A DNA stretch of 64,000 bases from Psammoneis japonica (Eukaryota). Position 1 is the stretch's first letter; the number at the start of each line of letters is the position of its first letter. The position numbers and the translations under genes are program-made. The notes beneath the pieces are model-generated. The model was given only the letters and a program-made list of their open reading frames with translations. It was not told the origin of the DNA and ran no database searches. Below, piece by piece: positions 26,867 to 64,000 of this stretch. The stretch covers positions 459,939-523,938 of the forward strand of contig QPGO01000038.1 of the NCBI GenBank assembly GCA_008632985.1. Direction: 5' to 3'.

Positions 26867-26959
26867 GTGATCTGGCCCCAGGTCCATGCCTTGAATCTAT
26901 GTTGGTGTTCGTGCGATCTGGCCCCAGGTCAATGCCTTGAATCTGTGGTTGTTGTGTTC
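26867..26959. repeat. Two-copy ~46-bp tandem repeat at the gene/TE boundary
   Basis: gatctggccccaggtc(c/a)atgccttgaatct occurs twice, followed by AT in copy 1 and GT in copy 2. Confidence 0.85.
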
Positions 26960-27397
26960 CACTGAGAAAGCTCTTCACTCAGGAGTTGAATTGATGCACG
27001 GATGCCTGCAAGATTCGAAACAATTTTGACCAAAAAACGAGCATGATTCATGATGAAGTGCGATGAGAAGATGATGAGGCAAAGAGTCTCGCTGTGAATG
27101 GTGAAAAAGGAGAGTGAACATCAGCCAAATTGTCCACCCAAATTGTTGACCACCATGACTGCAAATCCTTCAACAAGAATGACAGCACGTCATGGTGTGT
27201 GCCTGCACGGCTGTTTGTGTTGACAAATCATGTGCTGCATTGTCATCTGCCGCTGTTTTCTGGACTCATCAGTGCTGCTGGGTGAACCACCTTTGTCTGT
27301 GCTTGGCAGCATGAAACCAAGATGATGCCAGGAGAAAGAGTGTTTGTGAGCACTTGTCTCTTCACAATGTTGGAGCATCAAGCTCGAGGGGACAACA

Positions 27398-27669
27398 ACA
27401 CGTGGCCTGTTCCAGCTCCAGGTGATCCGCTTTTCATCACGCGAGAGGCCGATTTTCTGCGGAGTTTGGCGCAATTGACTCCTTCAATTTTGACAGTTTT
27501 GAAAATCGAAAGGTGAGTGTGCACCCAAAAATGCATGTAAAGTGCACACTCACCCTTCGATTTGGCAAAAAACGGATTTTGAAAAAGTTAATTGCGCTAA
27601 ATGCACAAATTGCCAAATGATGGGAATCGAACCCGCGCGGATCACCTGGAGCTGGAACAGGCCACGTGT
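27398..27669. mobile_element. MITE-like element with perfect 33-bp inverted repeats
   Basis: acacgtggcctgttccagctccaggtgatccgc (27398-27430) and its exact reverse complement (27637-27669). Confidence 0.8.
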
Positions 27670-30213
27670 GACCCAGAAATGAAGTTGTGTCTTTTAAACC
27701 CTGACGTGGCACGTCAATGACTGTTCCATGAAGAATGTCTTTTGTCATTGACCATGATCTCATCAACCTTTTGTGCTCACTCTTTGGAGTCAATCATCTG
27801 GTGAAACAACAACAAGAACAACAAGCGGCGTCTGTTGACATCCAGTTGATCCATTGGCACATGTTCCACCACAACATGTGAGGCAAACCATGGCTGATGC
27901 AGCATCCTGGACAAGCATGACAAGTGTTGCAGGAAGCATTGTGGGGCTCCCTTTTGGCAACATTGACTTGCTGGTTTGACCTTGTGTCCAGTCCCCAGCA
28001 GTGTCCAAAAAGTGCCCCACATCCGGGTTTTTCTCTTGTGCGATTTGTGCTGTGAACTGCATGGGAGAAAGACTTTGGACACCCAAAATGCAAGGTTTGG
28101 AGAACAAAAACATTGTCTGACTTGCCCTTTTCCATTGATGATGCAAGAGTTGTGCCGATCTCAAGAGCTTGCATGCAAAAAATTCTGCGTTCAACTGGAC
28201 ACAGCAAGGTTGGCATTCACTTCAAAGAGGTGCTGGCACTTGTTGAGTGCACACAGATTCAGTGGAAGTCCACAAGGCCATCCACACCTGCAGGGAATGC
28301 AGAAAACAAGCAAAGAACCACATGACCAATGCAAAGGTTGTGGTGACAGAGGTGACAAAAGAGCCACACCAAGAACAAGAAGTCCTTTCAGCACGTGAGA
28401 TGAAGTTCCATCCTTCAACCCTGGACAATGATGCACCTGACGCAACATGCAAAGATGTCAAGAGGAAGATCTGCAGACATGTGCAGAAAGAATTTGAGCA
28501 GGGTGAATGCATTGCAAGATCACTGGAGGGCACAAAGCACGCCAACTTCACTTCAGAGACACTGACATCTGAGGACATTAAAACCATCAATGATCACACC
28601 TGACCCAAGCGCCAACTCAACTGTGAAGCACAACAAAGCAGGCTGCTTCAAGAGGGAGGCAGCAAATGCTCAGGTGGCACTGCAACTGTGCCATGAGGCC
28701 AGGACTCCCAGTGTTGGAGATTTCAAACAATTCCTGCATCATCTGTTCACTGTGCATTTCATGATCCGCACGAAGAACAATCGCACTCCCCACTGTTGTG
28801 TGCCACAATTTTCAAATCACCAGCTAATTTTATTTTGTGGGCACAATTTTCATGCATGAAAGGGCTGCAGTGCGCACACTTGTTTTTCCTTTTTGGCTGG
28901 CATGCGATGTCTTGCCATGCCATCTGGGTTGCCATTCTCTAGCCGCCCCCAGCTTGCTCTGCTGTGAGCCCACCACGAACAGAACACTGTTTTGACATTG
29001 TTCTCAACTCACTGGTTTGTTAAAAATTTCCATGATTTTGGTGTGTGCTAGTTTGATCACACACTGTGTGGGCATGTTGGCTCATTTCTTTTCTCTCACT
29101 CATCGCTTGGCCTTGCTCTCACCCTTCTGTCTTCCTCATCTGCACCCGCTTCTTCTCTCTCTGTTTCGTACGATTTGTACAATCGCTCCACAACTTCGCG
29201 CAATCCATCGCAGTGACCACATCTGGCAGTGTGCGCTCCACTGCAAAACACCCTCAATCCCAAGAGCACCTTGTTGCACACCACCATGTCTCTGCTCACC
29301 AGCGGCGGGCAATGTCTCTCTTCGTAAAGCCAGGGTGCCTCACAGTTGTTGTGTTTGGCAAGATGAACCACACTCACTTTTGTCTCTTGACTCAATTCCA
29401 CACCACCATCAACACGGGGCGGCAGAGCACACACAATGTGCGGGTCGCGGCATTCATTGTCAGCCTTTCTGCAAGCCAACACAATCTTGCAAGGCAGCTG
29501 CTGCGCAAGGTGCACCGGTGTCTCCAATTCCAAGTCCACCAAATTTGTCGTCAACATCATTTTGTCCATGTGCATGTTGCAACGGATCTTTCCCCTTTTT
29601 GTCCACCCTTTCACAAATGGTTTCAAGCTGAGCGTGCACAACCTGTCTCCATCCATGTGTCCCACCGCGACACAACAATTGAAAGCTCCTTGGTCGACAC
29701 AAGTTCTGTTTTTATCCAGTTTTTCATGCAAACTCATGGTCCGGAACTGTCCCTCAATGTGTTCTTTTTGCAACTTTTCCAACAGCTTTTTAATCCAGTG
29801 TTTCCGCATTGAAGGGTGTCTGGGATTGCCAAAGTTGCGATTCCAGCAACGCACTGCATTGTCTTGCTCCACTGATTCTCTCAAAGCATTGAGCATGTGC
29901 AGCAACATTGCTTTGTCAACTAATTGGATTTCCAACACCCGTCTGCAATGCATGTAGGAAAACACACATTCCAGGATGCCTTCGGTCGACGCAAAGCATC
30001 CAAGTTTGCCCAGTGGTGGGTGAGCTTGTTGTTGGCATGAGGAACACAACATGTTCGATCGTAGCACCGAACATCAGTGTGGACGGATTGTGGTGGTTGC
30101 AGCTGTGTGTCCAGTTCGATTCTGCAAAGTCTCCTGCCTAGAAATCTGTGGGTGGGCTGTTCCCCTGGGATTCCAGTCGTGCTGTTTGTTTGTCTGCATC
30201 CCTGGAAGAGTCT

Positions 30214-34833: not shown

Positions 34834-37800
34834 TTATTTTTTCCCACTGTCAAAAACGCCCATTCCGCCGCCAACGAGCATGTTCTTCTGACAATGCCCA
34901 AAGGTGCGTTTGGGTGACGTGCCCTCCATTTGCCAATGCTGAAACAAACCGTTCTTGCTCATTTTCCTTTCCATGTTGCTTTGCTCATGACAAGTCCTCC
35001 CAAAAGCAACAACTTCTTTTTTGTCGTCACTCAGAAGAAACCCATGCAATTGCATTGAAAACAAGCTGTCGGTTCCATCGTCATTTCTGCATTTAACACG
35101 TGCAAAGTTGTGCCATCGCCCACCCTTGCAGCAATTGGGGTGTGCCCGAATTTGCAATTTGTGTTCGGCCTGTAGATTTGGCTCGGAACACAGAACAACG
35201 TGCCTGCGCCGGATTCCCCACTGGTTGCAATGACACAGAAAATCAACAACATCGAGTTCTAGATGAGCGCTGCATTCCCTTTTCACCTCCAGGGTGGCGG
35301 TGCACTTGCAGCATGTTTTTTCGAGTTGGTCGACTGTGAAGGTAGCGCAACCCATGTTGTGGTGCAATGGTGCTGCCACTGATGAATCTTGAGCGGCATG
35401 TGGATGGACAATCAAATCATTGGCTCTCTCCAAAAGACTCTGTTTGCACATTTGGCTTGCAAGTTGACGTGTGAACTCTTCTTTGCCTTGCAATGCTTGG
35501 CATGTCTGACTTGGAAGCTTTGCCCATTTCTTTAGACCAGACTTGCCGGTTGTGGCATCCCATCCTGAAAACACACCCAACCGACAAAGAGCGGTGATCA
35601 AGTGTGGCAGGTTGTGGAACTTTGATGTTTTCCATCCATGTGTGCCTTCGCCACGATTGATCATGCTGCGCAGCTTGAACATTAGAAGCAGGAGGCGGCA
35701 TTTCAGGTTGGCATGGTTGGCGCGTGAATGCTGGGAAGAACCACAGCTGTAGAAGGAGTGGAACAACAACAATTTGTTGAGCAAAAGCAACAAGTGATCC
35801 ACATTGTTGCAGTCCACTGAACAACAAGCTGGCTCCAGGTCATTGCACAGGCTGTTTAGCCTTTGGCGGAATGAAAGAGGCAGCTCCTTTTCAATCTCTG
35901 AACATGCAAAAGGTGGGTCGTGAGAATTTGCGTTGGTGTGAAGGGACTGGTGTTGATCCGCACAGCATCTAAAAACATCAGAAACGGAGGAATTGTCATG
36001 GTTGGGGATGCAGAATTGACGATCTAGGTTGACATTTCTTGTTTGCATCCTCACAATGTTGTGACAAATGTGAGCTTGAGCCGTGGTCATCTGCGATGCA
36101 CAAGGACACATGTGCATTAGCCCGTGATGTTGACGTTGATCCTCCAGGTGTTCATTGTGGAGTGGGTCGTCGTGTTCGCATTCTTTGTCAGTGAAAGGCT
36201 TGTTGACAGAGGATGCGGAGGCATGCTGTGTTTGATCCACATGGGAAAGTTCCTCCTTGTCACTCTCTCCCTCTTCGTCTTGCTGATTTGGTTGCTGTTC
36301 ATCTGAATCACATGCGGACTCATCGTCGTCAATGAGCACATCATCGTGATTGTCGGAAACGGGCTCACCTTCTTTGCATGCATGACCATCATTGTCTTCT
36401 TCTTTGCATTCACAACTGCATTCTGAAGGCTGGTCATCGAAATTAGAGGCGCGTTTTTTCTTTGTCTTGTCAAAATCTGGATGGCAACGAAGACGGAGCA
36501 TGCTCCGTCCCTCCTTGGTCTGACCCATCAGTGTCAACGCAAACAGCTTTCCCATTTTTTGGTTGCAGGTCAAACCGAACAAGGTGCAAAAGCCATTTTG
36601 CAAGACAACCGGTGGAAAGTTGGATCTCTGACCTGGTCTGCACCACTGAGATCCAAACACGCGGTTTGCCAAATCATTCAGTCGGGATTTGGCGGAATCG
36701 GGCAAATCGTCTGCAATGACGGAGAGCATCTGAGGGACTGTGCCACCTTGGAATGTGTGCATTGGATTGGGTGACGCAAAACCAAACACACCCTGACAAT
36801 TGTCTCCCATCCGAAGACGAAAGAATGAATTGTCAACCGTGTGTTGGCCAAACACCTCATGAAGTGTGGTGGAACAAATGTTCATGCACCGGACGACTGC
36901 AATGCGTGCCTGGGAACGGATTGAATCGGCTTTTGACTCAGACGTCGCTGTGTCCATTTGTGATTCAACACACAGATGCCATGGACTGTCGGTGGAACCA
37001 GGTGGTGGTCCAAGGGCTGCTGCAGCCAAACGCTCCATCAGTTCTTGGGAAAAGCACCTGCAGCAATGTAAAGGTTCATTGCTGTTGGTCCAGGAAGCAT
37101 GACAGGCATGACCAATGCGGCAGGAGTTTTTGCGCCCAGAATCATGACCGGTGACTTGTGTGGCGTCAACAGCATCGCCCAACAATGTCACGCTGTGAAC
37201 AATGATGCCCTCACAACAACACTGATCGCCAAGTTGGACTCGGCAGACAGGAGGTGATTCTTGTGCTTGAATTACAGATGCCAGGATGACAGACAAAATT
37301 CGGTGATGATTTCTGACGTTCATCCCAAAAACGGGATTCTTTGTTTTGCAACCGGTGTGTTTTGGAACGAATCCAAGAGGACGCCATGCTTCAAAACGAC
37401 GGTGGGCACATGACTTGATGAGAGTCATAGAGAAAACAAATGGCTCCATCAAATGAGGTGAGACCTGTCCTTTCCCGGTTTTGTCAGTGCAACACAAAAC
37501 AAACACATGAAAGGAACCGGGGACAGCGGGAAAATTGCTGCCACGAACACAGTTCCTGTGAGTGTCGCCGTCCTTCATTTCGGCATCGTCACAAAGTTTC
37601 CAGTCACCATTCTCGTCCAACATGGGTTCACTGGAGAGCTCCTGAGACCAACGTGAATCGGGAGGAACATCAAGATTTGAAAGGTCGGCAAAAAGGGGAT
37701 CGTCAAACAGATCCTGCAGTTGGAGGGAAAAGTTGCACACAGGGATGCCAGGAGAGAGATCCTGAGGCGGGTTGGTCTTGAATTGGTTGATGATGGAAAC

Positions 37801-38568
37801 AGACTCGAGAGGAATGTGCTGCAACACCAGGGCCACAATGCTGGGCAACATTGACTTGAGCTTGGACATGAAAGTTCAAGAAGAGGGAACTTGTCTTGTG
37901 ACGGACAACCCACCACTGGAGAATTCCTCCTGCACAGTTCTCAGCAATTCATCTGTCACACTTGTTGGGACACCCTTGGAGCAGCACAAATTCAACATGC
38001 AGGCCATGGATGTTGTTTTGCAGTTGTGCACTTTGAGCACCACAAGGTCCTCGTCCGCGGAGAGGTGCCCAACTTGATCGAGTGCAGAAAAGGGGCCAGA
38101 TTCTGCAACATTGATGGCAGAAGCCTTGGTGTCGGAAACAAATTCTTCGGGGTCGGGAAACTGGTGTTCTGAAACATCATCAACGTGGGGAAGAATGGAG
38201 TTGTTGTGGGAAACACGCAGCTCTGGCGTGGATGAAGATGCACGATGGGAATGCGGCGGCCATGGATTGTGTCGGGTGTAACCTGGTGGAGATGGAGATT
38301 TGTTGGCATCGGGGCCTGCGGCGACAAATTCGAATGGAGGAGAGCCAAGAGCAGAAGAGGTGGCAACATCCACTTGTTCATCTGTTTCTCCAGTTTGGGG
38401 ATGTTCTCCATTGGCGGGGTGGGATTGACGGGAAGAAACATCATGAAGGCTTTGAGAAAAGGACAGTTTGCAGGGAAGATGAGTTCTCAGGTGGTGTTGA
38501 AGACCAGTTGGGAGAAAACGTTTGCCGCACACGGGACAGTCATTTCCGATGGCAAAGGGGGGCGCCAT
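34834..38568 (-). pseudogene. Plavaka/CMC-like DDE transposase relic with N-terminal C2H2-like finger
   Basis: CPVCGKRF...LQHHLRTH; CTDKTG...MEPFVFS...AWRPLGFVP; NPMH; GWKTSKFH.L.H; IRAHPN...W. The 230-aa and 1011-aa ORFs are in the same frame, separated by one stop. Confidence 0.7.
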
Positions 38569-40365: not shown

Positions 40366-43300
40366 TTGTCATCATTGTTCTTCTTGCCCCAAGTTCCTTG
40401 TGATGTCACCTCACAGTCACGGATGTCCACATCACCAATGACATGTCCTTCTCACATCATTGCCATTGCGCTCATGGTGGCCCGAGCAGCGAGCAGCCTC
40501 CATCCTTTTTGTCAACACACAGCACTCATCATTGGCTGTTGTCCAAAAGACATGTCCTTTCAATCTGTGGACCCTGTGTCACTCTCCCGTGGTTTGTGTG
40601 GCAGTTGTCCAACCAATTTGCTTGAATGCCCTCATTGCCGTCAAATGGCTCTTCAAATCTCATTTGACAAGTGCCCATGCAAGTGGGCGGTGACTCTCCA
40701 GTGCCCTCCCTGCAGCGCCTGCTGGGTTGTTTGCAAAGATTGTCCCTGATGCAAAGACCACATTCTCAGTTTTGCGGAAGCCAGCTGCCATGACACACAA
40801 ATCCACCAGCGCAAAAAACGCGCTGCTCCCTCTCCCTTGCCCCCGACCAATGATGCAGATTCTCATTCTATGGCCGTCCCTGACAATGATGTCATCACTT
40901 TTGCAGCAGATGATTCTGTCATGTCTGCAGACCTTTTCGGTGCAGACCTGCCTTTGACCAACATGCTGGAAGAAGCCGACCATTTTGCCGCCCCTCCAGC
41001 CATTTCCACAGATTTGGCCAATCCATCCTACGTTGAAAACACTGATTGGTTGCTCTCTGTTCAACGCACTTGTTCCGATCCTTTTTTTGCTGCCAACAAT
41101 TGGGCAGCAAAAAACGTCACCTGCTTGCCAAGAATTTGTTCAACAATGCACAATTTGCAGAAAAAGTGTCAGACGAGGACGCTGAGGTTCACTTGTTGCT
41201 GGGCAAGTTAATGTTGTCCCTGTCTGAGCCACAGCAGCACATGTTGTGGGACTTGTTCAGATGGTTGGAACCCACAATGCTGGTGGGGGAAAGAAACAAG
41301 AGTCTGGATCACTTTCGGTTTGTTCTGCCCACAACACCCACACATGTTTGCAACATGCATTTAGAAGGATCTCATTTGCTTGAGAAGACGGTGCCCTTGG
41401 TGCCAATGCAAACACTCGGCTCTGGCAAAAACACTCACTCCCATTGCAGTGTGATTGACTCAATGTGCAACTTTTTAGCGTTCGGAACTGGCCTGGAAAA
41501 TCTGTGTGTAGCCACTGACAAAAATGGTTTGTTTCAAGAAAATCAACCTGTTTTCCATGCAAGACAGTGTCGTCGGGTTAAGGAAATTTATGACACTTCC
41601 ATTTCAATTTGGAACAATGACCAACACACCGATTGTCCATTGCTTGTCACAGCCTTTGAAACATTTTCTGATGATTTTAACCCTGCCGTGAGCCTGATTG
41701 CTTCCAATGTCAATGGCACTTGGGCTCACCACATTGGGTTTCTTCGCCAACCACGTCGTGGACCTTTGTTCCCTGATGACTCAAGCATGACCGCAACCGA
41801 CATTGGTGAGTTCAACAACCGCTTTCTCATTGCGCTTGGGCCCAAAGGTGCAAATCATGACGTGGTTGTGTCTGAGGTTGAAAGGGAATGTCACCTTCTC
41901 CGATCTGGGCAGGTGCCACCCATGTTTGTTGGCAGCACTGGCAAATTAATGAAGCCCATCGCAGATGTTTGGTTGCGATCTGGAGACCAACCTGAAAAAC
42001 ACACCATTGCTGGAATGAAACTTGGCATAAAAACCAATCATGCATTGTTCGGCCATGTTTTGAACATCAAGAAAGTTGGTTGTCATCTTGCGTCTTGCAT
42101 CCACTGTCACAAACGCATTGAAGAAACCCTTGTCAATGGTTTCCAAACGATTGCAGACTTGACATGTCCATTTGGATTGTGCACCAACTGGTCTGTTGAT
42201 GCCTCCAATCCGTTGCTGCATGCCCCCCCTCCTGCCAACTTTCCACTCAGCAAACTCGGTGGTAAATCGGTTCTCCCTCCTTTCAAATGGACCTGCAAAT
42301 TTCTCCAAACTGCCGCAATTAAAACGCACACAAATGTCTGTCAGAACCAGTGGACCATGGCAGAAGGCGAAGCTTGTCTTGGTGATCATTGCAGTGTGAA
42401 CACACAAGTTGTTTCTGGTGTTTTGGAAAACACCAACAACTGCAATCTGTTGAAAGTTTTGCAAGATGAACCCGATCAAAATCCAGAATTGTTAGAAGTG
42501 CTTTTGCTTGATCGTGAACGTCATCCTGAGAAACGCCGCATGTGTCAAATGCCACCCATTTGGTTTAGCGGGACACCTCCTGACCAGTGGCAGGAGGCAC
42601 CAATGCATGGTCTCAGCAACACCGCAAAGGCCGTGATGCATTTGATGGAGAAAGGTTTGGCTTGCTGCTCACACGGGCGATGGGAACGGATTGTAGATTC
42701 CTTGCTGATGAGCCAGATGCGACACTGTTGTGAAACACTGAGACTTCCTTGGTTGAATGTGCATCCATTCACAAAGGACAGTTTTGCTGGATTTAAATGC
42801 AAAAATTGGATTGCGTTTGGACTTTTGTTTAAATTCTTTGCCAACTTAACACTTGAAACACCGGATGGCCCACCTGTGGTGTTTCCGCCTGCCAACAAAC
42901 AAGCAAGTTGGACCATGCCATTTGACAAGGCATGGCTGAAAATGCGTGGATTGCCAATGGATGGCAATGCCAAAGAACTCCGTGAACGTGTTGTGGATTA
43001 CATGGCCATGACAAACCCTCCAGGCATGTTGCCTTCCACTGCATTGCAGGTGTCTGACATTGTTAAAATGCTCAACTCTGCCTCAAACATGTGTGCACAC
43101 GCACTTTCTGGATTCAGTTCAGATGATTTGGAGTTGTGTCTCAGGCATTGCATCATGCGATTTCTCAATGACATGGATGCTTTAGATCTGCCAATGTGAA
43201 AAAACCGTGGCAAAGACGGCAAAGATCTGGCCCCAATCTGGCATGAAAGACACACTGTTCTTAGCATGTTGTCTTTTCCTGACGACATGCATGACAAAGG

Positions 43301-44786: not shown

Positions 44787-44789
44787 GAC

Positions 44790-47700
44790 GGGTGACCAAG
44801 TGAAACAGCAATTGTCATGCCTGGCATGCATCACAAATGACATTTTGATCTCCCTTGCCTTGCGTTTGTTCAATCTTCTGCGGATCACCTTGGGCAAATC
44901 GAATTGGCACATCACCAAAATTTTCTTTGACAAATCATTGGTCACACGGACTGCTTCTTCCGGCCGGTTTCCTGAACACCAATTCCAGCAATCAAGACTT
45001 GTCACAGACATGGCATGTGTGTGATTGGAGTCAAAAATCCAACCATTGCACACAGTTGCACAGTGGTTGTTTGACAATCCACACAAGATCAGCTTCTTGC
45101 ACAACAAATCTTCCGTCGTGATGCTGGCATCTCTGGTGCAGTCAATCTTCCTGCCTTTGTAAAACTTCATTGGACCATCAACCGGAGGACACTCCTTCCT
45201 TGACAGACCTTTCATCAGAGAGACCGCAAACCACAACCGTCAGTCACCATGATTGGCTGATGTTGCAGAAGCCTCAATTTGACGGCTGACATGATGAGTC
45301 ATGCGCTCGTCTTGCAAGCAATGCAACGCACTAGCCAACAAAGAAAAAATGCACGTGTCGTTGTTGCCTTGTAAAAAGCAAACCTTGGGGCCAAAGGTCA
45401 GAAGCCAGTTTTCCTCTGGCTTCAACAACACCAATCCTTTGGGCATTTCATGAATCTCACCTGGCTTCAATGCCATCATGGCCTTGTGCACACTTGGGTG
45501 GCAACATTCAAAGTTGCACTTAGCCCACCAACCTGAGTGAAATTTTTGCTCATCACCCATGACGGTCCGTGCACGGAATTTTGGGTGCTTGTTGCCCGCA
45601 TCCTCTGTGCTGTCCACTGAGTCCTCCGCAAAATGCTCTTTTGCCTCATCCTGCCGCAGGGCTTGCACTTTCTAAATCTGGTCTGTTTCGATCTGCTGTT
45701 GGGCCCATCGTTGAATGATTTTCCTCAACTTCTTGCTGAGTTTCTGTGGCCTGTTAGGCTTCTCTTTTGCCTTTTTAACTAGACTCTGCAGCTTGTCCAT
45801 GTTGGCTGCTCCCTCATCATTGCTTTCTTTGAAACGGTCTTTGATCAGTGCTCTCCTGTTTTCTTGTTCTTCACACCAACCAAACAAATGAGGCACATCA
45901 TGTTCCAGCGAATCCCTGGGACGTTTGGGCGCATCTGCACTCCTGTCTTTGGGCACTGTCCATTCCACAAAGTGCAATTTGGACAAATTGATCACATTGT
46001 TGCACTCCACTTTGGCACAGCAACATGCATCCATGTCCTCTTTTGCAGACACTTTGCGTTCTGCAGGCCTGCACAACAAACCTTGAATGTCGTCTTTTCC
46101 CATTGACTTTTTCAAAAATTCTTCCTCCCTGTCCACAAAAGTCTCTTCCTCTGTGCCTCCACTTCTTGAAGAACGCTTGGCAGCATGAGCATGAGTTCTC
46201 CTGGCAAGGTTTTGACACTGAACATGATGGATCGCTCTTTGTTCTTGGTGCTGGTTTACACAGCAGGTGGATTTGCACCAACAAGCGACATGGTTCATCT
46301 CAGCAAGGAAGAACTTTTGTTGATTCAAACCTTGAAATTGATTTGAGAGATCACGGTCATCTTGAACCGCACTCAACAATGCGCTGTGCAGCTTGTGTGA
46401 CATTTTTTTCTTGCATTTTGGTGGGTGCATCTGTGTGACATGGTCGAACCATGTCATCATCAGCTCTTCGAACAACCATTTCCCCACGTGCGGAAGCTCT
46501 CCAGTGTCATCATCAGTTGTCCCCTTTTTTGCAAAGCACTTCGCATTGACACACATGTGGCAGCTGTCGAAAGAGAGTGTCACCTGGGCCTCTGGCTCAT
46601 CTGCGTCGATGCCGGCAGTGTCGTGAGTGTCCTCCAAATCAACACATGCTGCTGTGTCTTCCAGGTCAGCATCAGAGTCACTGCGCCACCGTTGGCAGCA
46701 ACCGTGGAGAAGCCTGCATCGTTCGCAGTTGTTGTCTGTGAGCTTCTTGCTGCATTTCCCGGCTGACTTGCTCACTGGGCCCGCTTCCACACCGGCGCGG
46801 AAATGCAGCATTTGTTCACACCACTCATCTTCGTCTCCCGCTGTTTGATGCGGTTGCACCTCCTCCTCGTTCAGAAAAAAATTAACTGTTCGCATCAAAA
46901 AGCGCAATGCCTCAATTTCCGCACGTGCTCTTGGATCATTTGATTTGACTGCATGGTTGCGACAACTTTTGTGAATGTGCTCACCAAGCGGAAAATCCCG
47001 GAACTTGGAGAACTCCATGTTGCTGACTGCAGCAGAGGGTTTTTTGTTACGCAGTCCATGTTCTGACAGATCAATTGCAAGTTGGCCGTACATTTCCTCC
47101 TCCTTCATGGTTTTCAGAGCCTCCTTGAACCATCAAGGATCATCCTCTTTCCAGACAGCGCTGTTGTTGAGAGTTTTCTTCATGCAGTTCTGGCAAACAT
47201 CCTCATCGTGGGGGAATGGCAACAAAAATAACTTCGACCGGGTCTGCACCCACTCGGTTGTTCTCAAGACTTTTCAGCAGTCATCTTCAATTTCTGCCAA
47301 TTCTTTCCAGTTCCACCATGCCTCTACGTCTGCATGGCGGGCCTCCTGGAGGAACCCATCCGTCACATCTTGGAAGCCCATTGTTTTTGAGCAGTGCTCG
47401 ACGAGATGCTCCTGGCAATGAAGCAATGCATCCCACTTGCTGCACACGTGAAAACAAAGGGATTGGGTGAGACCAAATAAAAATGGACAAACACCGCACT
47501 TTTTGGTCATGACATCGTCTCGCGGATGGTCGATGGTGCGCACAAAGTCAAACGCAACTCCAACATTTTGAAAGCAACGGCAAAGGAGCGCAGCCACCAC
47601 ACCGTTGGACATGTCGCAGTCAAGTTCCTTTGCTGATTTTTGCTCGCAAATAATTGGCATGTGTGAGTGTTTGTGCTGGACAGCCTGACGGATGACTGAG

Positions 47701-48080: not shown

Positions 48081-48120
48081 GATTGATGATGAAGCAGTCT
48101 GAGCCGCCGACACACACAGT

Positions 48121-49496: not shown

Positions 49497-52334
49497 TTGA
49501 ATGAGACGATGTTGGCATGGCTGGATTCAAAAGCGGCGTCCCATTGTCAGAGCGACAAGGGGCCAGGGACATTGCGTGCACAAGCACCATTGCCAAACAT
49601 TGAGCTAAAAGCAGGAACAGAAGGGCGGCACTGGATGGATGTGGATTTGGCAAAGGAGCCGCACGCCACCATGTTGTTTGGGAGACGAGACATCAGTTGT
49701 GAAAAGTGCACAGAGAAACATGCTAAGGCGCTCCTCCGTCAGCATTGCAGGGAACAGACAAAAAAGACAGAAGACAAGGATTGCATCAAAGAGTTGCAGA
49801 AGAGACACAATGAGTTCTTGAAGAAGATGAAGCATGATGCTTTAAGCAGAATTGAGGCGGTGTGCTTGGCGGTGAGCATGGGAATGGGGATGCGCGCCAG
49901 CAACTTGGCTCACTTTGCTTTTCGTGAGATGGCAAAGCACGTGGGAAACAACCAAAACTTCATGGGGTGGCTGCGAGCATTTCATGTCAACAAAGGCATT
50001 TGGGACTTGCAGAAAGGTTGGGCGTTAGACACAGAGCAAGCGTCTTGGAATGTTTTGGGGTGCGCATGCGCCAACGGGTTTAAACCAAGTGCTAGATTGC
50101 ATGGATGTGCCACAGTTGTTGTCACAAAGGAAAAGTCGAGGAAGCAGCAGGAATTGGAATTTAATGACGCGCTTGAGAATCATTGCAACGGGTGTTGTTT
50201 GTTGACGAAGGATGCAGTGAACCGATTGGAAGAAACCAAAAGTGGGTGCCGCAAGGAAGCGGTGTTTTGTCACAGAGTGATGGTGGTGCCAAGCAAAAAA
50301 ATCCATTGAGGCAATTGTGGTTGGAGGATGTGTTCCGTGTGCAGACGTGTGCCAAACTGTTGTCCATTTTGCTTTGATGCTCGTGTTTGACAGGATGCTA
50401 ACACAGACAATTCGAGTGTGTTTGTCATGCCCAAAGAGGCGCCAGTGCAAGATGATGGTGGTGTTGACCTGCGGAGGCACAAAATCACGTTGTTTGGTGC
50501 CAAAGTTGTTGTGCAGTTTGACATGGCCTTCCAGTTTGCGCACTCGAATCGTTTGGCATTTCAAAAACGAGGTGACGACACAGTTTTCAAGACAAGGAAC
50601 GACGGCTTGGAAGTGGCACCGTTGCCATTGGAAATTGGCCAGAAGGCGGCGCCTGCTGCAAGGAACAATTGGGAAGCAGAGCCATCGCCATTGGAAACTG
50701 GCGTGAAGGTGGCGCACGTTGGAACAGACGAGTTGCAATTGGATCGCTGGGAAATCAGCAACAAAGTCGCGGACAACAATGACACGGAGTCCGCAACCAG
50801 TGCATTGTCGAAAGCGGTGTTTGACGCATTCCACAATCACGCAGATTGGCCCTCCAGTGCGGACGCCAATGCAACCACAACAAGTTCAAGTGCAGAAGAA
50901 AGCCAAGAGACGTTTTGGCAAGAGATCCAAGAGAATGACAGCACAGCCACGGACTGGCTGTTGTGTCAAGGCAAGGAAAACACGGCTCCGACTGGCGTGG
51001 AATGGTGCCGTGGGGGATTGCAGGGCGCTTGTGCAGCAAACGCGAGAGGAAGTCACGAAAATGGCAAAGCAACATGGTGCACCAATGCTCATGCAACAGA
51101 TCAGAGGAATCCGCATGATGAAGTTTTGCAGGGCATGAGCTTGTACGCAGCAAGAATGCAGCAACGTGGTGATGAGGCTGAGTTGATGGAACAGCGTGAA
51201 AGAATCAAAAAGGTGAGTCAAGATGGGTGCGGCAACACATCAGCGGTTGGCACCGTGCCAACCTGTTTTTCATTGGAATGGCAGGCGGCAAAAAACAATC
51301 GCAGAGCACTGGGAGACAGAGCCAGAAAGGAGCGCAAAAACGGAAAGGTTGAAACAGACAAAATCAATCAGATTGTCTCGGCAAGGCAACTGGCACAGCA
51401 ACAGGCATCTGGTGTGCTGCCAAATTTAACCAGGGATTTGAACATGAGCACCAAGGGTGACAAAACAGGCATCAAGTGTTCTAAGTCTAAAGCAGCACCA
51501 TCAGCAAGAGCCCCATCAGCAAGGGCCCCCAAGGCCAAACCAAAGCCCCAATCCAAGCCGGTTGAACCCAAGTGCCTGGTCTGCAATGCGACTGTGTCAA
51601 ACGAGTTGAAGTGTCATTTGTGCGCTGCGTCCGCACATGCAACCTGTTTGTTGGCAGATGAGAGCAACAAAATGTTTTGTTGGGATTGCAGCAATGACTT
51701 GCAACAACTTGCAATTAAAAACAATTTGAAGTGCAATTGCCATGATCACAAAAGCCAGGATCATTTCTGTCTGTGTGAGAGTTGGTGGGAAGTTGTGGGT
51801 TTGGTGTGCAAGAAAGACGGGTGCAATTGCAAGTGGGAAAAGAATGACAAGAAAAAAGCGTGGTTGTGTGATGGAAAAAATCAGGGTTGTTGTGGAATGG
51901 TGCATTGTGCACAGGTGAATGTTTTGAGCAGGCTGTGCCCATGGAAGGGCGTGGTCGCAAGTCGAGGCGACGCAACTGAGGTCGATGCGGCAGCTTGTTT
52001 AGCCAGTGATGTGTGGCATGACAGTTGTCAGTTTGGGCAGTTCAACATTTCTGTCAAATGTCATGATGCTCCACAGTGCTCTTTGTTGTGGTTAAAATTG
52101 ATGAACAAAGAAGCCAATGCGCAATGGCTGGCTAGAGCCTGCTGTGTGGAAAAGGGGCATCGGCTTCTGTCATTGCCAGCATCGGGAAAAATCCCACCAT
52201 GCACGCATTCTAAAAAGAGCCGATGTTCAAAAGGTGGTGTGCTGCAATTGGTGATGCGGAGCAGTTGTTTTGACGGTCAAACATTAAAACGTCATGATGT
52301 CAGGATGATGTGGGAGAGGATGACGCAGTTGTGA
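49497..52334 (+). pseudogene. Accessory gene relic with a PHD finger
   Basis: CLVC-x9-CHLC-x4-H-x2-C-x10-CWDC (C4HC3 spacing) at ~51573-51690, after a Pro/Lys/Ala-rich linker. Confidence 0.55.
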
Positions 52335-52837: not shown

Positions 52838-53146
52838 AAGGTGAGTCACGCGTGTGATGGCCAGCCGTGCCGGTCTCAGTTGCACGGATCTCCCACAGAC
52901 CATCACAGGTCTTGCACTGGGAGTCTTGTCATCTGATTTGTGCTGCTGTGGGATCAGCATTGCTGTGGACAGCCTGCAGACACAGGAAAGTGGCATCAAC
53001 GGCGGCTGCGGCAGGGACACCTGCTGCAGCCAGCAGATGAGAAAGTGAGAGACAGATCTCAGAGAGATCTGCTCGTCTGTCTGGGTGGTCCGGTCGTCAT
53101 CCATGCACAGTCTGTCAATCACACAACAGACAGACTGACACACGCT
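52838..53146. repeat. Dispersed repeat X; inverted copies at ~58907-59187 and ~55386-55452, direct partial copy at ~63602-63725
   Basis: Shared sequence, e.g. gaccatcacaggtcttgcactgggagtc and ggcatcaacggcggctgcggcagggacacctgctgc. Confidence 0.85.
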
Positions 53147-54725
53147 TGCTTTCCTTGAAACAACTTGTTTGTTTTCCTTGAAACAACTTGTTTGTTTTCC
53201 TTAAAACAACTGCTCATTTTCCTTGAAACAACTTGTGTGTTTTCCTTGAAACAGCTGGTCATTTTCCTTGAAACAATGTGTTTGTTTTCCTTGAAACTGC
53301 TGGTCATTTTCCTTGAAACAGCACGCTTGTTTTCCTTGAAACAACATGTTTGTTTTTCCAGAAATGACATGTTTGTTTTTCTTGAAATGACATGTTTGTT
53401 TTCCTTGAAACCACAGGTTTGTTTTCTTTGAAACAACATTTTTGTTTTCTTTGAAACAACATGTTTGTTCTCCTTGAAATGAAATTTTTGTTTTCCTTGA
53501 AACAACATGTTTGTCTTCCTTGAAATGACTTGTTTGTTTTCCTTGAAATGACGTGTTTGTTTTTCTTGAAACAACATGTTTGTTTTCCAGGAAATGACAT
53601 TTTTGTTTTTCTTGAAAGGACGTGTTTTTTTTCCTTGAAAGGACATGTTTGTTTTCCTTGAAAGGACATGTTTGTTTTCCTTGAAACAACACATTTGTTT
53701 TCCTTGAAACAACATGTTTGTTTTCCTTGAAACAACATGTTCATTTTCCTTGAAATGACATTTTTGTTTTCCTTGAAATGACATTTTTGTTTTCCTTGAA
53801 ACAACACGTTTGTTTTTCTTGAAATGATGTGTTTGTTTTCCTTGAAACAACATGTTTGTGTTTTTTCAAATGACTTGTTTGTTTTCCTTGAAACAACATG
53901 TTTGTTTTTCTTGAAATGACACGTTTGTTTTTCTTGAAAGGACATGTTTGTTTTTCTTGAAAGGACATTTTTGTTTTCCTTGAAAAACACGTTTGTTTTT
54001 CTTGAAATGACATGTTTGTTTTCCTTGAAACAACACGTTTGTTTTCCTTGAAACAACAAGTTTGTTTTCCTTGAAACAACATGTTTGTTTTCCTTGAAAT
54101 GACATTTTTGTTTTCCTTGAAACAACACGTTTTTTTTTTTTGAAATGACGTGTTTGTTTTCCTTGAAACAACATGTTTGTTTTTCTTCAAATGACTTTTT
54201 TGTTTTCCTTGAAACAACATGTTTGTTTTTCTTGAAATGACATGTTTGTTTTCCTTGAAACAACATTTTTGTTTTCCTTGAAACAACATGTTTGTTTTCC
54301 AGGAAATGACATTTTTGTTTTCCTTGAAACAACGTGTTTGTTTTCCTTGAAATGACACGTTTGTTTTCCTTGAAACAACACGTTTGTTTTCCTTGAAACA
54401 ACATGTTTGTTTTCCTTGAAACAACGTGTTTGTTTTCCTTGAAACAACACGTTTGTTTTCCTTGAAACAACACGTTTGTTTTCCTTGAAATGACATTTTT
54501 GTTTTCCTCGAAACAACACATTTTTTTTTCTTGAATGACTTGTCAGTTTTTCTTGAAACCACAGGTTTGTTTTCTTTGAAACAACATTTTTGTTTTCCTT
54601 GAAACAACACGTTTGTTTTTCTTGAAATGACTTGCCAGTTTTTCTTGAAACCACAGGTTTGTTTTCTTTGAAACAACATTTTTGTTTTCCTTGAAACAAC
54701 ACGTTTGTTCTCCTTGAAATGACAA
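53146..54725. repeat. 23-bp satellite array (consensus TTCCTTGAAACAACATGTTTGTT)
   Basis: Head-to-tail degenerate 23-mers; translations show a 23-aa period. Confidence 0.95.
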
Positions 54726-57764: not shown

Positions 57765-60700
57765 TAAAACAAACCACGTTGTTTCAAGGAAAACAAACAT
57801 GTTGTTTCAAGGAAAACAAGTGTGTCATTTCCCAGAAAACAAACACGTTGTTTCAAGGAAAACAAACACGTTGTTTCAAGGAAAACAAACACGTCCTTTC
57901 AAGAAAAACAAACATGTTGTTTCAAGGAAAACAAACATGTCCTTTCAGGAAAAACAAACGTGTCATTTCAAGAAAAACAAACACGTCATTTCAATGAAAA
58001 CAAACGTGTTGTTTCAAGGAAAACAAAAATGTCATTTCCTGGAAAACAAACATGTTGTTTGGAGGAAAACAAACATGTCATTTCAAGGAAAACAAACATG
58101 TCATTTCAAGGAAAACAAACACGTTGTTTCAAGGAAAACAAACATGTTGTTTTAGAGAAAACAAACATGTCATTTCAAGGAAAACAAACACGTTGTTTCA
58201 AGGAAAACAAACACGTTGTTTCAGAGAAAACAAACATGTCCTTTCAAGAAAAAAAAACATGTCATTTCTGGAAAAACAAACATGTTGTTTCAAGGAAAAC
58301 AAACATGTTGTTTCAGAGAAAACAAACACGTCATTTCAAGGAAAACAAACACGTTGTTTCAAGGAAAACAAACCACGTTGTTTCAAGGAAAACAAACATG
58401 TTGTTTCAGAGAAAACAAACATGTCCTTTCAAGAAAAAAAAACATGTCATTTCTAGAAAAACAAACATGTTGTTTCAAGGAAAACAAACACACTGTTTCA
58501 AGGAAAACAAACATGTTGATTCAAGGAAAACAAACATGTTGCTTCAGAGAAAACAAACATGTCATTTCAAAGAAAACAAACACGTTGTTTCAAGGAAAAC
58601 AAACATGTTGTTTCAGAGAAACCAAACACGTCCTTTCAAGAAAAACAAACATGTCATTTCCAGAAAAACAAACATGTTGTTTCAAGGAAAACAAACATGC
58701 TGTTTCAAGGAAAATGACCAGCAGCTTCAAGGAAAACATGCACGTTGTTTCAAGGAAAATGACCAGCTGTTTCAAGGAAAAAACACAAATTGTTTCAAGG
58801 AAAACAAGCAGTTGTTTCAAGGAAAACACACAAGTTGTTTCAAGGAAAATGAGCAGTTGTTTCAAGGAAAACAAACAAGTTGATTCAAGGAAAGCAAGCT
58901 TGTTTCAGCCTGTCTGTCGTGTGATTGACAGACTGTGTGTGGATGACAACCGGACCGCCCAGACAGATGAGCAGATCTCTCTGAGATCTGTCTCTAACTT
59001 TCACATCTGCTGGCTGCAGCAGGTGTCCCTGCCGCAGCCGCCGTTGATGCCACTTTCCTGTGTCTGCAGGCTGTCCGCAGCAAGGCTGATCCCGCAGCAG
59101 CGCACATCAGATGACGAGACTCCCAGTGCAAGACCTGTGATGGTCTGCGGGAGATCCGCGCAACTGAGACCGGCACGGCTGGCCATCAAACATGTTGTTT
59201 CAAGGAAAACAAATGAGTTGTTTCAAGGAAAACAAATGTGTTGTTTCAAGGAAAACAAAAATGTCCTTTCAAGGAAAACAAAAATGTCCTTTCAAGAAAA
59301 ACAAACGTGTTGTTTCAAGAAAAACAAACACGTTGTTTCACAAAAGACAAAAATCTCATTTCAAGGAAAACAAACTTGTTGTTTCAAGGAAAACAAACAC
59401 GTCCTTTCAAGAAAAACAAACGTGTTGTTTCAAGGAAAACAAAAATGTCATTTCAAGGAAAACAAACATGTTGTTTCAAGGAAAACAAACACGTTGTTTC
59501 AAGGAAAACAAACACGTTGTTTCAGAGAAAACAAACATGTCCTTTCAAGAAAAACAAACATGTCATTTCTAGAAAAACAAACTTGTTTTTTCAAGGAAAA
59601 CAAACACAACTCGCCAGCTTTCCTTGAAACAGCTGGTCATTTTCTTGGAAACAGCTGGTCATTTTCCTTGAAACAACATGTTTGTTTTCCTTGAAACAAC
59701 TTGTTTGATTTCCTTGAAACAGCATGTTTGTTTTCCTTGAAGCAGCACGTTTGTTTTCCTTGAAGCTGCGCGTTTGTTTTCCTTGAAGCTGCACGTTGTT
59801 TTCGTTGAAATGGCTGGTCATTTTCCTTGAAACAACACGTTTGTTTTCTTTGAAGTCATTTTCCTTGAAATGAAACAACACGTTTGTTTTCCTTGAAACA
59901 ACACGTTTGCTTTCCTTGAAACAACACGTTTGTCATCTCTGAAACAAAAGAATTGTTTTCCTCAAAACAACGTGTTTGTTTTCCTTGAAACAGCTGGTCA
60001 TTTTCCTTGAAACAGCACGTTTGCTTTCCTTGAATTGGCTGGTTATTTTTCTTTAAAACAGCTTGTCATTTTCTTTGAAACAACGTGTTTGTTTTCCTTG
60101 AAACAAAATGTTTGTTTTTTGTTTGTTTTCCTCCTTGTTTCATTTCAAGGAAAATGACTTCAAGGAAAACAAACGTGTTGTTTCAAGGAAAATGACCAGC
60201 CATTTCAACGAAAACAACGCGCAGCTTCAAGGAAAACAAACGCGCAGCTTCAAGGAAAACAAACGTGTTGCTTCAAGGAAAACAAACGTGTTGCTTCAAG
60301 GAAAACAAACATGTTGTTTCAAGGAAAACAAACGAGTTGTTTCAAGGAAAACAAATGTGTTGTTTCAAGGAAAACAAAAATGTCCTTTCAAGGAAAACAA
60401 AAATGTCCTTTCAAGAAAAACAAACGTGTTGTTTCAAGAAAAACAAACACGTTGTTTCACAAAAAACAAAAATCTCATTTCAAGGAAAACAAACTTGTTG
60501 TTTCAAGGAAAATGAACATGTCCTTTCAAGAAAAACAAACGTGTTGTTTCAAGGAAAACAAAAACGTCATTTCAAGGAAAACAAACATGTTGTTTCAAGG
60601 AAAAGAAACACGTTGTTTCAGAGAAAACAAACATGTCCTTTCTAGAAAAACAAACATGTCATTTCTAGAAAAACAAACATGTTGTTTCAAGGAAAACAAA

Positions 60701-61620
60701 CACAACTCGCCAGCTTTCATTGAAACAGCTGGTCATTTTCTTGGAAACAGCTGGTCATTTTCCTTGAAACAACATGTTTGTTTTCCTTGAAACAACTTGT
60801 TTGCTTTCCTTGAAACAGCACGTTTGTTTTCCTTGAATCAGCACATTTGTTTTCCTTGAATCTGCGCATTTGTTTTCCTTGAAGCTGCGCGTTCTTTTCG
60901 TTGAAATGGCTGGTCATTTTCCTTGAAACAACACGTTTGTTGAAATGGCATTTTTCTTTTCCTTGAAACAACACATTTGTTTTCCTTGAAACAACATGTT
61001 TGTTTTCCTTGAAACAACATGATTGTTTTTCTTGAAATGACGTGTTTGTTTCCTTGAAACAACATGTTTGTTTTCCTTGAAACAACGTGTTTGTTTTCCT
61101 TGAAATGACATTTTTTGTTTTCCTTGAAACAACATGTTTGTTTTTCTTGAAATGACATGTTTGTTTTTCCTGAAAGGACGTGCTTGTTTTCCTTGAAAGG
61201 ACACGTTTGTTTTCCTTGAAACAACGTGTTTTTTTTCCTTGATGCAACATGTGTGTTTTTCTTGAAACAACGTGTTTGTTTTTCTTGAAACAAATTGTTT
61301 GTTTTCCTTGAAACAACGTGTTTGTTTTCCTTGAAACAACATCTTTGTTTTCCTTGAAACAACACGTTTGTTTTCCTTAAAACAACGCATTTGTTTTCCT
61401 TGAATTGGCTTGTCATTTTCCCTGAAACAACATGTCACATGTTTGTTTTCCTTGAAGCAACGCATTTGTTTTCCTTGAAACATTGTGTTTGTTTTCTTTG
61501 AAACAACATGTTTGTTTTCTTTGAAACAACACATTTGTTTTCCTTGAAACCACATGTTTGTTTTCTGTGAAAAAACAACGTCTTTGTTTTTTTTCTTTGA
61601 AACAGCCAGTCATTTTTCCC
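57765..61620. repeat. 23-bp satellite arrays in alternating orientation, interrupted by repeat X
   Basis: TTTCAAGGAA orientation at ~57765-58895, 59187-59605 and 60143-60703. TTCCTTGAAA orientation at ~59619-60110 and 60717-61620. Confidence 0.95.
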
Positions 61621-61639
61621 AGAGGAAAATCAAACACTC

Positions 61640-63200
61640 AAGTTGTGTGACATGAACAGTTTTTTGGATCGCGTTGCATGTCACTTGCACACATTTCTGT
61701 GTGTGATGTTCTGCAGAATTGTCTCATGCTCCCTGTTTTGTGAAGCCAAAGGCTTTCTGTTTTCAACATTTGTGAGAATGAAAATGCACTGGATGTGCTC
61801 CAGCTCCAGGTGGGACCTTGCGCTGCTGAGCTGTGACACAAAATTTGTTTGTCATCTGTCGCATGTTTTGCACGTGCATTTTTGCGTGTTCCATCACAAA
61901 ACAATGTCCCATGCTGCCTGTTTGAGAGGGGTGGGAATCTGCCAATCTAGCAGCCTTGTGATCAAAAGCCGGGTGGCTCTTGCAGATGATCTGCTTGAGA
62001 GCCTTTCATCCATTGCCGCAGCAAGATGTGACAATCCAATGATGTTTGCTGTTCTCAGGGAACTCGCCCAAGTTGGAAAGGATCTTGTGAAGGGAACTTT
62101 GGGCTTCTTTGCTGTGAACACACACTCATTGGGGCAAGTCATCATCTTGGCCATTGCAAGCCTCAAAGCCCTTCTCACCACCGTGATCCTTTGTGAAGCA
62201 CCACAAAGGATGCAAGCAGCATCCCAAGTTGAGTGAGTGATGTTGGAAGTTTTTGCGCCATGCACATGTCCCAGTGGGAGAGTCATCATGACAGACCGGA
62301 GGTTCTCTGAACAGCATTTTCTGATCAGGGGTCAAGCTCACAACAAAGAGAGTGCAGCCATTGAGAATGATGCAATCAGAGGCATTGATGTGATGACGGA
62401 ATCCATGGTCACAATGGACGAGTGAGCTCTTCAGGGTGGCGTCTCCATGTTCTTTGCGGCTGCAGCATTTGCGGGCATTGGCAGGCAGAGCATCAGGGTT
62501 GAAGAGATGTTTGGATGCAGTGGAAGTTGCAGTGCTTCCAGATGTCTTGCCGGAGGCAGCAGAAGGCAGAGCAGTGCTCGGCGCAAACTTGTTGAGGGCA
62601 GTGATTGAGTCATTCACACCAGTGGTTGCAGGTCCGGAGCTGGTGGCAGGCGAGGATGCAGGCTGTGGTTTCTGCTGGCAGGGCTTGAGGGAAAACTCTT
62701 TCCAACCCCAACAATGCCATGTCATGTCAGGATCAATGCAAATGTGTTGTGTGGAAATGACAATGTGTGTCGTTTGATCATTGCTCCAGAGATTGTCTTG
62801 ATCATCAACGACATGGCTGGAGACGTCGCGCGGATTGCACGAGGCCTGGCGGGGTTTGCAGCACGGAATGCAGCTTGACCCACAATCGTCTTGACAGGCT
62901 GCATGTCCACAGGATCAGCCGTGCATGGTGGGAATGTTGTGCAGATGATGTGATCTTGAGATGAGCCCACATGATCATTCTTGGGTTGAGCGTGCTCTGG
63001 ATTGTCAAAGAACGGGCCCAGGTCAATTGTTGAGTCCGTGCGCACCTCATTCAAACACGCGCGGAGATGAGGTGTCAATGCATGTTCTTGAAGCTCACAA
63101 TGGATCTCTGCAAGAGACGTTGGAGTGGCCTTTGCAAGGTCAGGGGATGCCATGGTTGCACTTGGTGAGAGCATTTTTGGTCGCGCACATGCAGAAATCT
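61640..63200 (-). pseudogene. Probable copia (CoDi) gag relic
   Basis: W.KNFQHHSLNLGCCLHPLWCFTKDHGGEKGF...DDDLP and NG*KALKQIICKSHPAF recall diatom copia gag, with Tyr->Cys/His changes. Confidence 0.5.
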
Positions 63201-64000
63201 GGTGTGTTTCTACGATCGTGAAAAATGCCGGGAAAGCAAGCAAAAATTGTTGCTGGAACAGACAACGAGGCTTGCTTTGTTGGCTCACAAAACAAATGAA
63301 TCAAGGTGGAAAGTGTGGTGCAGAGTTCTGTGGCACAGCACAAGGCCACAACCTGACAGAACACTGACGGTCAATGATGACAGAGGCACAAAAGACTCCC
63401 CAAGCACTGGGGCTGTGACAACACAAGTGCCATGCCCTGTGCAAAAAACAGGGTCCAAGCACTTGGTTGCAAAGAGGTCAACAATTCTTGTGCTGTGCAA
63501 ATCATGGGGCTGTTTTTGCAGAGTGCGTGCATGTGCGACAGCAGGACATGCGGAGCTTCAGCCCTTCCATGCAGCCAATCATGCTTGGTCCCTTCACATG
63601 CAAGGTGAGTCACGCGCGCAATGGCCAGTCATGCTGGTCTCAGTTGCATGGATGTCCAGCAGACCATCACAGGTCTTGCACTGGGAGTCACGTTGTCCAG
63701 TGTGCACTTCTGCGGGATCAGCATCGGAGTTGCCTTGGCAGTGGTGTGTGCAGTTGCACGGCAGAAAGTTTCAGTCCAAGGGTTGTCTTTGCCCAGCTCC
63801 ATGTCTTGCACTTGGAGTGCTGCACGAGCACAAGCACTGCATCAAGAAAATGCAATGCACAGTGTCAAGTTGTGTGCGTTCCACTGTGCAGTTCACCCTG
63901 GGTTAAAAAAAAAAGGTGGCGCATCGACACGTGTGCAGAGTTGATCAGGCTCCACTCTCTGTCACATGGCAACACCCCTTCTGTCTTTGACAGGCAATGG

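Follow-up and report, generated by a model that had tools for sequence, protein, structure and literature searches.

The stretch of DNA analysed here, hereafter the window, comprises 64,000 nucleotides of contig QPGO01000038.1 (positions 459,939 to 523,938 of the forward strand) in the Psammoneis japonica assembly GCA_008632985.1, and consists of gene-bearing DNA alternating with three domains from which the dinucleotide TA has been almost entirely lost. These domains, D1 (5001-8400), D2 (14001-19300) and D3 (26901-64000, reaching the end of the window), add up to 45.8 kb, and the gene-bearing intervals (1-5000, 8401-14000 and 19301-26900; 18.2 kb) serve as the outside reference. The TAs that are left in the domains follow a ranking by their flanking bases, in which RTAY is far rarer than RTAR and YTAY, and these are far rarer than YTAR (R, purine; Y, pyrimidine). 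This ranking, first noticed by eye, is confirmed in all its parts, and it is probably best explained by a near-saturating, strand-wise hypermutation of TpA to TpG or CpA in repeats, accompanied by the decay of CpG.

Genes, domains and repeat content

The gene content, as seen by Pfam searches of the gene-bearing parts, places the window in the nuclear genome of a photosynthetic eukaryote. Encoded in these parts are a CLC channel that carries a CBS domain (3-2762, minus strand), a class 3 lipase (3532-4566, plus strand), an HSP20 protein (8847-9710, plus strand), a light-harvesting protein whose nearest clusters are mostly from Bacillariophyta (20105-20866, plus strand) and a PRK-family kinase (25553-26434, minus strand). 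In the region of the kinase gene, contigs from the public sequencing run depart from the window's sequence at numerous sites between 25290 and 26108, by mixed types of substitution that include transversions and by small indels. Unlike the changes in the domains, these differences are not centred on TA, and they look like a second allele or a paralogue.

The domains are set apart from the genes by a sharp drop in TA at their edges, with 0-9 TAs per 500-bp bin inside and 11-42 in the gene regions. In 2-kb bins, the observed/expected ratio (o/e) of TA is 0.01-0.14 in the domains, where CG is also reduced (0.35-0.72, and down to 0.13 in D1) and TG and CA are raised (1.46-2.03). Outside, including the reference interval 19301-26900 with its Pfam hits, TA reaches 0.50-0.70 and CG 0.80-1.26, so that the adjoining genes are unaffected and the depletion is confined to discrete regions. 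In total, 226 TAs are left in the domains, compared with 740 outside.

The domains consist of multi-copy repeat DNA, namely a transposon relic, duplications and satellites, of a diatom-like nuclear genome. Contigs from the public run match the domains at 90% likeness or more in 2411 cases, with summed depths of 100-1640 compared with about 40 in genes, and the higher part of this range (400-1640) lies over a coding relic. The latter is an open frame of 1013 codons on the minus strand (34837-37875), a remnant of the protein of a multi-copy element, which lacks any Pfam family and has a single relative, P0001 (1313 residues, E 5e-37, 26% identity). P0001 shows a weak, sub-threshold match to Plavaka transposases (E 0.049), and its distance from the frame prevents a dependable polarisation of codons. 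When unmutated relatives of the 1013 residues were sought in metagenomes, 27 pattern stretches matched, none of which is a relative. The frame may belong to an undescribed transposase family of diatoms. Neither 18 long open reading frames nor, in a subsequent Pfam search, the domains' 129 stop-to-stop frames matched any family of transposons or viruses, and reverse transcriptase is absent from the 129 frames.

D3 also contains arrays of a 23-bp satellite (53146-54719, 57766-58904 and 59187-61577), with about 200 units in both orientations, and a tandem duplication on the plus strand (42535-44394) of two units of about 930 bp that are 93% identical. Pfam hits to LbR_Ice_bind ('grass antifreeze beta roll') sit on the satellite and were rejected as translation artefacts. 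Additionally, at the left edge of D3, the segment 27336-28002 reaches a summed depth of about 12700, compared with about 40 over genes, as expected of a very high-copy short element, and an imperfect palindrome spans 27398-27669. TAA and TAG are nearly gone from the domains, and long open frames consequently abound and overlap on the two strands (129 of at least 110 codons). Examples include 41046-43196 and 50391-52331 on the plus strand and 45675-47132 on the minus strand, and gene callers would over-predict here.

Surviving TAs and the half-site rule

The counts of all NTAN tetramers, merged by strand and given as inside versus outside the domains, reveal a strong dependence on the flanking bases. 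ATAT has disappeared (0/73), and ATAC with GTAT (1/99) and GTAC (5/54) are close to extinction. ATAG with CTAT (6/83), ATAA with TTAT (16/109), CTAC with GTAG (26/110) and GTAA with TTAC (30/91) are intermediate, and the best-preserved tetramers are CTAA with TTAG (63/73), CTAG (26/17) and TTAA (53/31). Grouped into three classes, these counts become 6/226 for RTAY, 78/393 for the mixed class of RTAR and YTAY and 142/121 for YTAR (chi-square 205.7 with 2 degrees of freedom (df), p 2e-45), which correspond to length-normalised survivals of 0.011, 0.079 and 0.466, respectively. Under a null model that takes its dinucleotide frequencies from the domains themselves and is conditional on the TA count, o/e is 0-0.40 for RTAY, 0.31-1.19 for the mixed class and 1.9-2.7 for YTAR, and the classes are therefore depleted unequally even after correction for composition. 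The ranking is unchanged when the satellite arrays are left out, as they also are in the recounts behind the CpG contexts, the product predictions and the bootstraps given below. When five sub-domains are tallied singly, YTAR outnumbers the other classes in four, the exception being D2, the least advanced domain, in which 32 TAs are left (RTAY 1, mixed 18, YTAR 13); D1 retains only 11 (RTAY 1, mixed 0, YTAR 10).

The original prediction had described the leftover TAs of 26900-64000 as mainly TTAA, CTAG, TTAG and CTAA, with fewer RTAR and YTAY sites and very few RTAY sites. The tally bears this out: among the 183 TAs of D3, 119 are YTAR, 60 belong to the mixed class and four are RTAY. These four are the GTAC sites that had been singled out by eye, with coordinates correct to within one base: a closely spaced pair (29168-29171 and 29177-29180) and two single sites (47088-47091 and 51143-51146). 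The commonest contexts of the survivors in the domains are TTTAAA, TTTAGA, TCTAAA and TCTAGA, and the surviving TAs are not clustered, as gaps shorter than 20 bp make up 9.3% of all gaps, compared with 9.5% under a Poisson process. In the tandem duplication at 42535-44394, the TAs common to both units are likewise mostly YTAR (6 of 8), and the units differ by TA in one and CA in the other at two positions.

Erasure is restricted to TA among the four NA dinucleotides, as AA, CA and GA are not reduced. This bears on an explanation by a mutator resembling polymerase eta, in which error-prone repair synthesis recruited to heterochromatin would write G for A at TA. The hotspot of polymerase eta, known as WA, is an A mutated after A or T, and A-to-G change at T-A falls within it; a comparison with this signature had been suggested in the original prediction. 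Such a mutator should also erode AA, but the AA and TT classes inside the domains amount to 0.99-1.31 of those outside, and A/T runs of at least five bases are even commoner in the domains, at 5.44 per kb, than in the outside reference, at 3.74 per kb. The poly-A runs are thus intact, as had been claimed, and they argue against a general WA mutator in the way the original prediction proposed. Given also that the change is confined to TA and subject to a strong rule for the pyrimidine that follows, this explanation is highly improbable.

The effect of the flanks was resolved by a regression with one term per half-site, that is, per strand, in which survival is expressed relative to A at position +1 (the base 3' of the A of TA). 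Relative survival at this position falls from 0.79 with G to 0.215 with C and 0.093 with T (likelihood-ratio test (LRT) 231.5, df 3). The following base contributes as well, with A at +2 being protective and C, G and T lowering survival to 0.47, 0.43 and 0.32, respectively (LRT 54.4, df 3). The product logo is too weak to place this +2 effect on the same or the opposite strand. Expressed as relative rates with intervals from 300 bootstraps, the +1 bases rank as T (2.82, 2.35-3.58), C (1.69, 1.48-1.98), G (0.50, 0.19-0.81) and A (0.21, -0.01-0.42).

A single rate per strand is sufficient to describe these data. An additional interaction term for RTAY amounts to -0.21 +/- 0.50 (LRT 0.18), and, when the strands are treated as independent, the survival of YTAR (0.466) and of the mixed class (0.079) predicts a survival of 0.013 for RTAY, or about 7.6 sites, where six are seen. 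Patches in which one strand was preferentially changed were also sought, by comparing RTGY with RCAY in 500- and 1000-bp bins, and the heterogeneity inside the domains (chi-square/df 1.10 and 1.34) is no greater than outside (1.12 and 1.24). RTAY vanishes because it offers two good targets, one on each strand; RTAR and YTAY offer one, and YTAR, above all in the form TYTARA, offers none and persists. The half-site motif itself is held with high confidence.

The rule for the +1 base also bears on the editing of double-stranded repeat RNA by an ADAR-type enzyme, with fixation of the edits through reverse transcription and re-insertion. In its favour, ADARs have a preference for U as the 5' neighbour of the A, and double-stranded RNA derived from repeats is among their substrates (PMC11276115 and the Discussion of Mettrop et al., bioRxiv 10.64898/2026.01.13.699255, as far as these sources were available). 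Their 3' neighbour preference, given in the accessible part of PMC11276115 as G > C~A > U or G > C > U~A, and their second-best 5' neighbour, A, are difficult to reconcile with domains that spare TA before G, lose it most readily before T and leave AA intact. Moreover, the domains form unbroken blocks of 3-37 kb, within which lie satellites, a tandem duplication and a relic resembling a DNA transposon, and their 129 frames contain no reverse transcriptase. RNA editing is thus the least probable of the explanations considered.

Products, mass balance and the direction of change

By symmetry, the survivors alone cannot place the flank effect 3' of the A rather than 5' of the T on the opposite strand, and they fit A-to-G change at TAY and at RTA alike, so it is the products that indicate the direction. 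In terms of mass, the domains have lost 35.7 TA and 28.1 CG per kb, together 63.8, and gained 66.5 TG and CA, as expected of a change from TpA to TpG/CpA alongside CpG decay. The gain per kb is 1.68-1.75-fold for NTGY and RCAN, and just 1.15-1.26-fold for NTGR and YCAN. The gains of the 16 NTGN tetramers were predicted without free parameters, taking the precursors from the outside densities and the rates from the fits on TA and CG survivors. The TAY model, in which A-to-G change is set by the 3' base, leaves a residual sum of squares (RSS) of 68 or 85 (r 0.63 or 0.45), depending on the assignment of CpG decay, and the mirror model (A-to-G change at RTA) leaves an RSS of 161 or 244 (r -0.13 or -0.39). 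The TAY model is the better one in all 300 block bootstraps.

The loss of CG has a context of its own. Survival is lowest for TCGA (0.28) and TCGB (0.41-0.46), rises to 0.80 for CCGC and is highest for GCGC (0.96), and the corresponding rates of CpG loss are 0.63 for TCG, 0.32 for ACG and 0.16 for CCG and GCG, which makes TCG about 2-4 times faster than the others. The assignment of this context to the 5' side is favoured in 261 of 300 bootstraps. From the TAY and TCG biases, the losses of TA and CG are alike in that T precedes the changed base.

A further trace is found in coding capacity. The four longest frames of the domains contain 0.17% Tyr, 5.1% Cys and 4.5% His, compared with 2.37%, 1.72% and 2.25%, respectively, in the outside genes; this scarcity of Tyr and increase of Cys and His is what is expected if TAY codons turn into TGY or CAY.

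The direction can also be read from a pair of inverted repeat copies that are 82% identical. One of them, within D2 (17993-18526, minus strand), is heavily converted and has 3 TAs, and the other, which spans the edge of the domain (19458-19987, plus strand), has 24. Three of the 21 TAs compared are kept in the converted copy, and 15 of the 18 changed ones have become TG or CA. In the mixed class, YTAY has given YTGY eight times and YCAY three times, and RTAR has given RCAR three times and RTGR never, so that 11 of the 14 conversions, a small number of events, are in the direction from TAY to TGY. The first 200 bases of the less mutated copy (19458-19660) are themselves converted, with a single TA, and the copy is TA-rich beyond; the edge of D2 thus runs through a repeat element rather than at its end.

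Strand independence, the direction of the products and this polarised copy pair all support the proposal, made in the original prediction, that a 5'-TAY-3' target of A-to-G change lies on two, one or no strands according to the class of site. Its proviso that the preference is not absolute is sustained too, since YTAR sites are also converted in the copy pair.

Besides the small size of the copy pair, several points weigh against this reading. The bulk product excess is confounded by the TCG-biased decay of CpG, and the share of mixed-class conversions in the predicted direction is accordingly placed at about 0.54-0.94. TG/CA dimorphisms between the members of six repeat pairs are not concentrated in the R__Y context (14 of 41, with 12 in R__R, 7 in Y__Y and 8 in Y__R). 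This share is close to the 31% that RTAY represents among outside TAs, and a strict motif would give more; CpG decay together with a slower path at TAR can account for it, and the dimorphisms add no support. The ancestral state was taken from the neighbouring genes and not from true ancestors, and the tetramer predictions are moderately good (r 0.63). The three public runs listed, none of which is RNA, come from one sample of one study and may be the assembly's own source, with a library type that is not on record; of the 648 variants in the contigs, the 40 listed are too few for a motif logo. Finally, A-to-G change at TAY is formally the same as T-to-C change at RTA, so that the same data fit an attack on either base.

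Some of these points are shared by the view that there is no mutator at all, and that the pattern stems from a native, odd (foreign) composition, from selection against TA or from an artefact of sequencing or assembly at modified bases. Composition by itself cannot show direction, and the sole runs that contain the stretch derive from one sample. Nevertheless, the copy pair has TA in one copy where the other has TG or CA, the lost TA and CG equal the gained TG and CA, and Tyr is replaced in the relic frames. Contigs of the public run with word depths of 27-39 reproduce the TA-poor sequence, and seven of the eight listed X1 pieces have 0 differences; exact matches by short contigs, with a word depth near 30x, weigh against a base-calling artefact. 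It is, in turn, implausible that selection acts across 45 kb of satellites and defunct repeats. An origin without a mutator is consequently extremely unlikely.

The formal identity of the two changes also underlies a rival reading with a modified T. A hydroxylase of the TET/JBP type could produce 5-hydroxymethyluracil (5hmU) or 5-formyluracil in the 5'-R-T-A-3' context of repeats, which would mispair with G and lead to T-to-C change. Such change at RTA is indistinguishable from A-to-G change at TAY in every count presented here. Against it, 5hmU is only weakly mutagenic, and T-modification is not known from diatoms. In dinoflagellates, according to the available part of PMC11572971, 5hmU is enriched in repeats, helps to silence transposons and replaces T preferentially in TA and TC. 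The TC classes of the domains amount to 0.84-0.90 of those outside, so that TC is not depleted beyond TCG, and the parallel loss of C at T-C-G is more easily explained by deamination. An attack on T is therefore improbable.

A putative deaminase and its relation to known systems

Strand-wise adenine deamination aimed at repeats is, on these sequence patterns, the most likely mechanism. The residual TAs are best read as the kinetic footprint of a near-saturating hypermutation from TpA to TpG/CpA, in which each strand is struck independently and the chance of A-to-G change depends on the bases 3' of the A. The order of preference is T-A-T > T-A-C >> T-A-G > T-A-A, the rates standing at roughly 13 : 8 : 2.4 : 1, and A at +2 confers additional protection. 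The order of contexts, the independence of the strands, the direction, the mass balance and the confinement to repeat domains are shown by the counts, whereas the agent is inferred. It would be an adenine deaminase of polynucleotides that attacks DNA while this is transiently single-stranded or has the base flipped out, its inosine product would be read as G, and it would be aimed at repeats or heterochromatin. The chances that adenine deamination specifically is responsible are about even. A bolder and rather doubtful extension is that one repeat-directed deaminase with a pocket for the 5' T attacks both the A of T-A-Y and the C of T-C-G on single strands. If so, the loss of TA and much of the loss of CG would be two outputs of one natural dual A-and-C DNA editor, that is, of a genome defence in diatoms resembling repeat-induced point mutation (RIP); the editor would be akin to ADAT2/TadA in its logic and perhaps also by descent.

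The three parts of the rule, namely the order TAT > TAC >> TAG > TAA, the independence of the strands and the change of A to G where the A precedes a pyrimidine, constitute a testable enzyme signature. They state the expected outcome of an in vitro oligonucleotide assay and tell the process apart from the activities of ADAR, polymerase eta and canonical TadA. For coding sequences, the predicted outcome is the replacement of Tyr by Cys, or by His where a purine precedes the codon, and TAA and TAG stops are predicted to be spared unless a purine precedes them. If one exists, a natural adenine deaminase that acts on DNA at a defined motif would also interest those working on base editing.

The pattern of TA loss does not match the ADAR signature, the WA signature of polymerase eta or the UACG signature of TadA. 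TadA edits the A of U-A-C within UACG or YUACGAA, according to the accessible part of PMC11472039, and has in common with the domains the T (U) directly 5' of the edited A, since only TA is erased in them. It differs in its demand for C at +1 and G at +2, as T is preferred to C in the domains (2.82 compared with 1.69) and G, C and T at +2 have similar effects (0.43, 0.47 and 0.32). The ADAT2 protein of amphioxus (BjADAT2) deaminates DNA in a TCG context for cytosine and a GAA context for adenine, as stated in the part of PMC10354150 that was available. TCG is likewise the most eroded CpG context of the domains, a likeness of context only, but the GAA context is untouched in them and AA is not depleted. 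For ADARs, the order of 5' neighbours is U>A>C>G and G is preferred 3' (available part of PMC11276115). They resemble the process described here in the preference for 5' U and in acting on repeats, and differ in preferring 3' G and tolerating 5' A, as T or C is preferred 3' in the domains and G at +1 is nearly as protective as A (0.79). Additionally, the substrate here consists of blocks of DNA, satellites included.

In Neurospora and other fungi, RIP is a transition-only, dinucleotide-specific hypermutation of repeated DNA that changes CpA to TpA and ruins transposons. In outline, the process in the domains is similar, as it consists of transitions, is specific to a dinucleotide and is restricted to repeats. 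Its direction and chemistry are the opposite, since RIP enriches TA, while the domains combine a TA o/e of 0.01-0.14 with a TG and CA o/e of 1.46-2.03 and show no sign of CpA changing to TpA. RIP acts on duplicated sequence, and duplication is at most a candidate trigger in the domains, which are multi-copy by summed contig depth. RIP is also cited in the Discussion of Mettrop et al. (bioRxiv 10.64898/2026.01.13.699255, available in part).

The closest known system is that of the chlorarachniophyte Bigelowiella natans, in which, according to the available part of the same preprint, giant-virus and virophage DNA that has integrated undergoes the change from TpA to TpG/CpA, with 231 de novo hypermutations and a measured rate about 1000-fold above background, and an adenine deaminase was proposed as its cause. 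In both cases, A:T pairs change to G:C only at TpA, giving TpG or CpA, the change is limited to discrete non-host or selfish regions, and TpA depletion with CpA and TpG enrichment is the long-term trace. The two systems differ in their host and targets, which are viral in Bigelowiella natans. In the diatom-like window, the content consists of satellites, duplications and the frame with a weakly Plavaka-like relative, with no viral gene in the 129 frames. They also differ in extent, as a Rho of 0.45 is given for the region derived from a nucleocytoplasmic large DNA virus (NCLDV), while the erosion of TA in the domains is near saturation (o/e 0.01-0.14) and CpG is lost as well. The available portion of the main text of Mettrop et al. 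contains no flank rule and no mention of context, flank, trinucleotide, tetranucleotide or logo, so that the order TAT > TAC >> TAG > TAA, the protective A at +2 and the independence of the strands are absent from that text.

A mutator that erases TA from selfish DNA, opposite in effect to RIP, has thus been reported once before, for an unrelated alga and with no rule for the flanking bases. In the literature on diatom hypermutation and on TpA depletion in transposable elements, as represented by the opening parts of abstracts, no report of this process was found. What is new here is the set of quantified half-site rates, the strand independence, the +2 effect, the test of direction and the link to TCG. 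The presence of the same chemistry as in Bigelowiella natans, at saturation, in a diatom-like genome suggests that the process occurs widely in marine protists and that their repeat landscapes are shaped by it.

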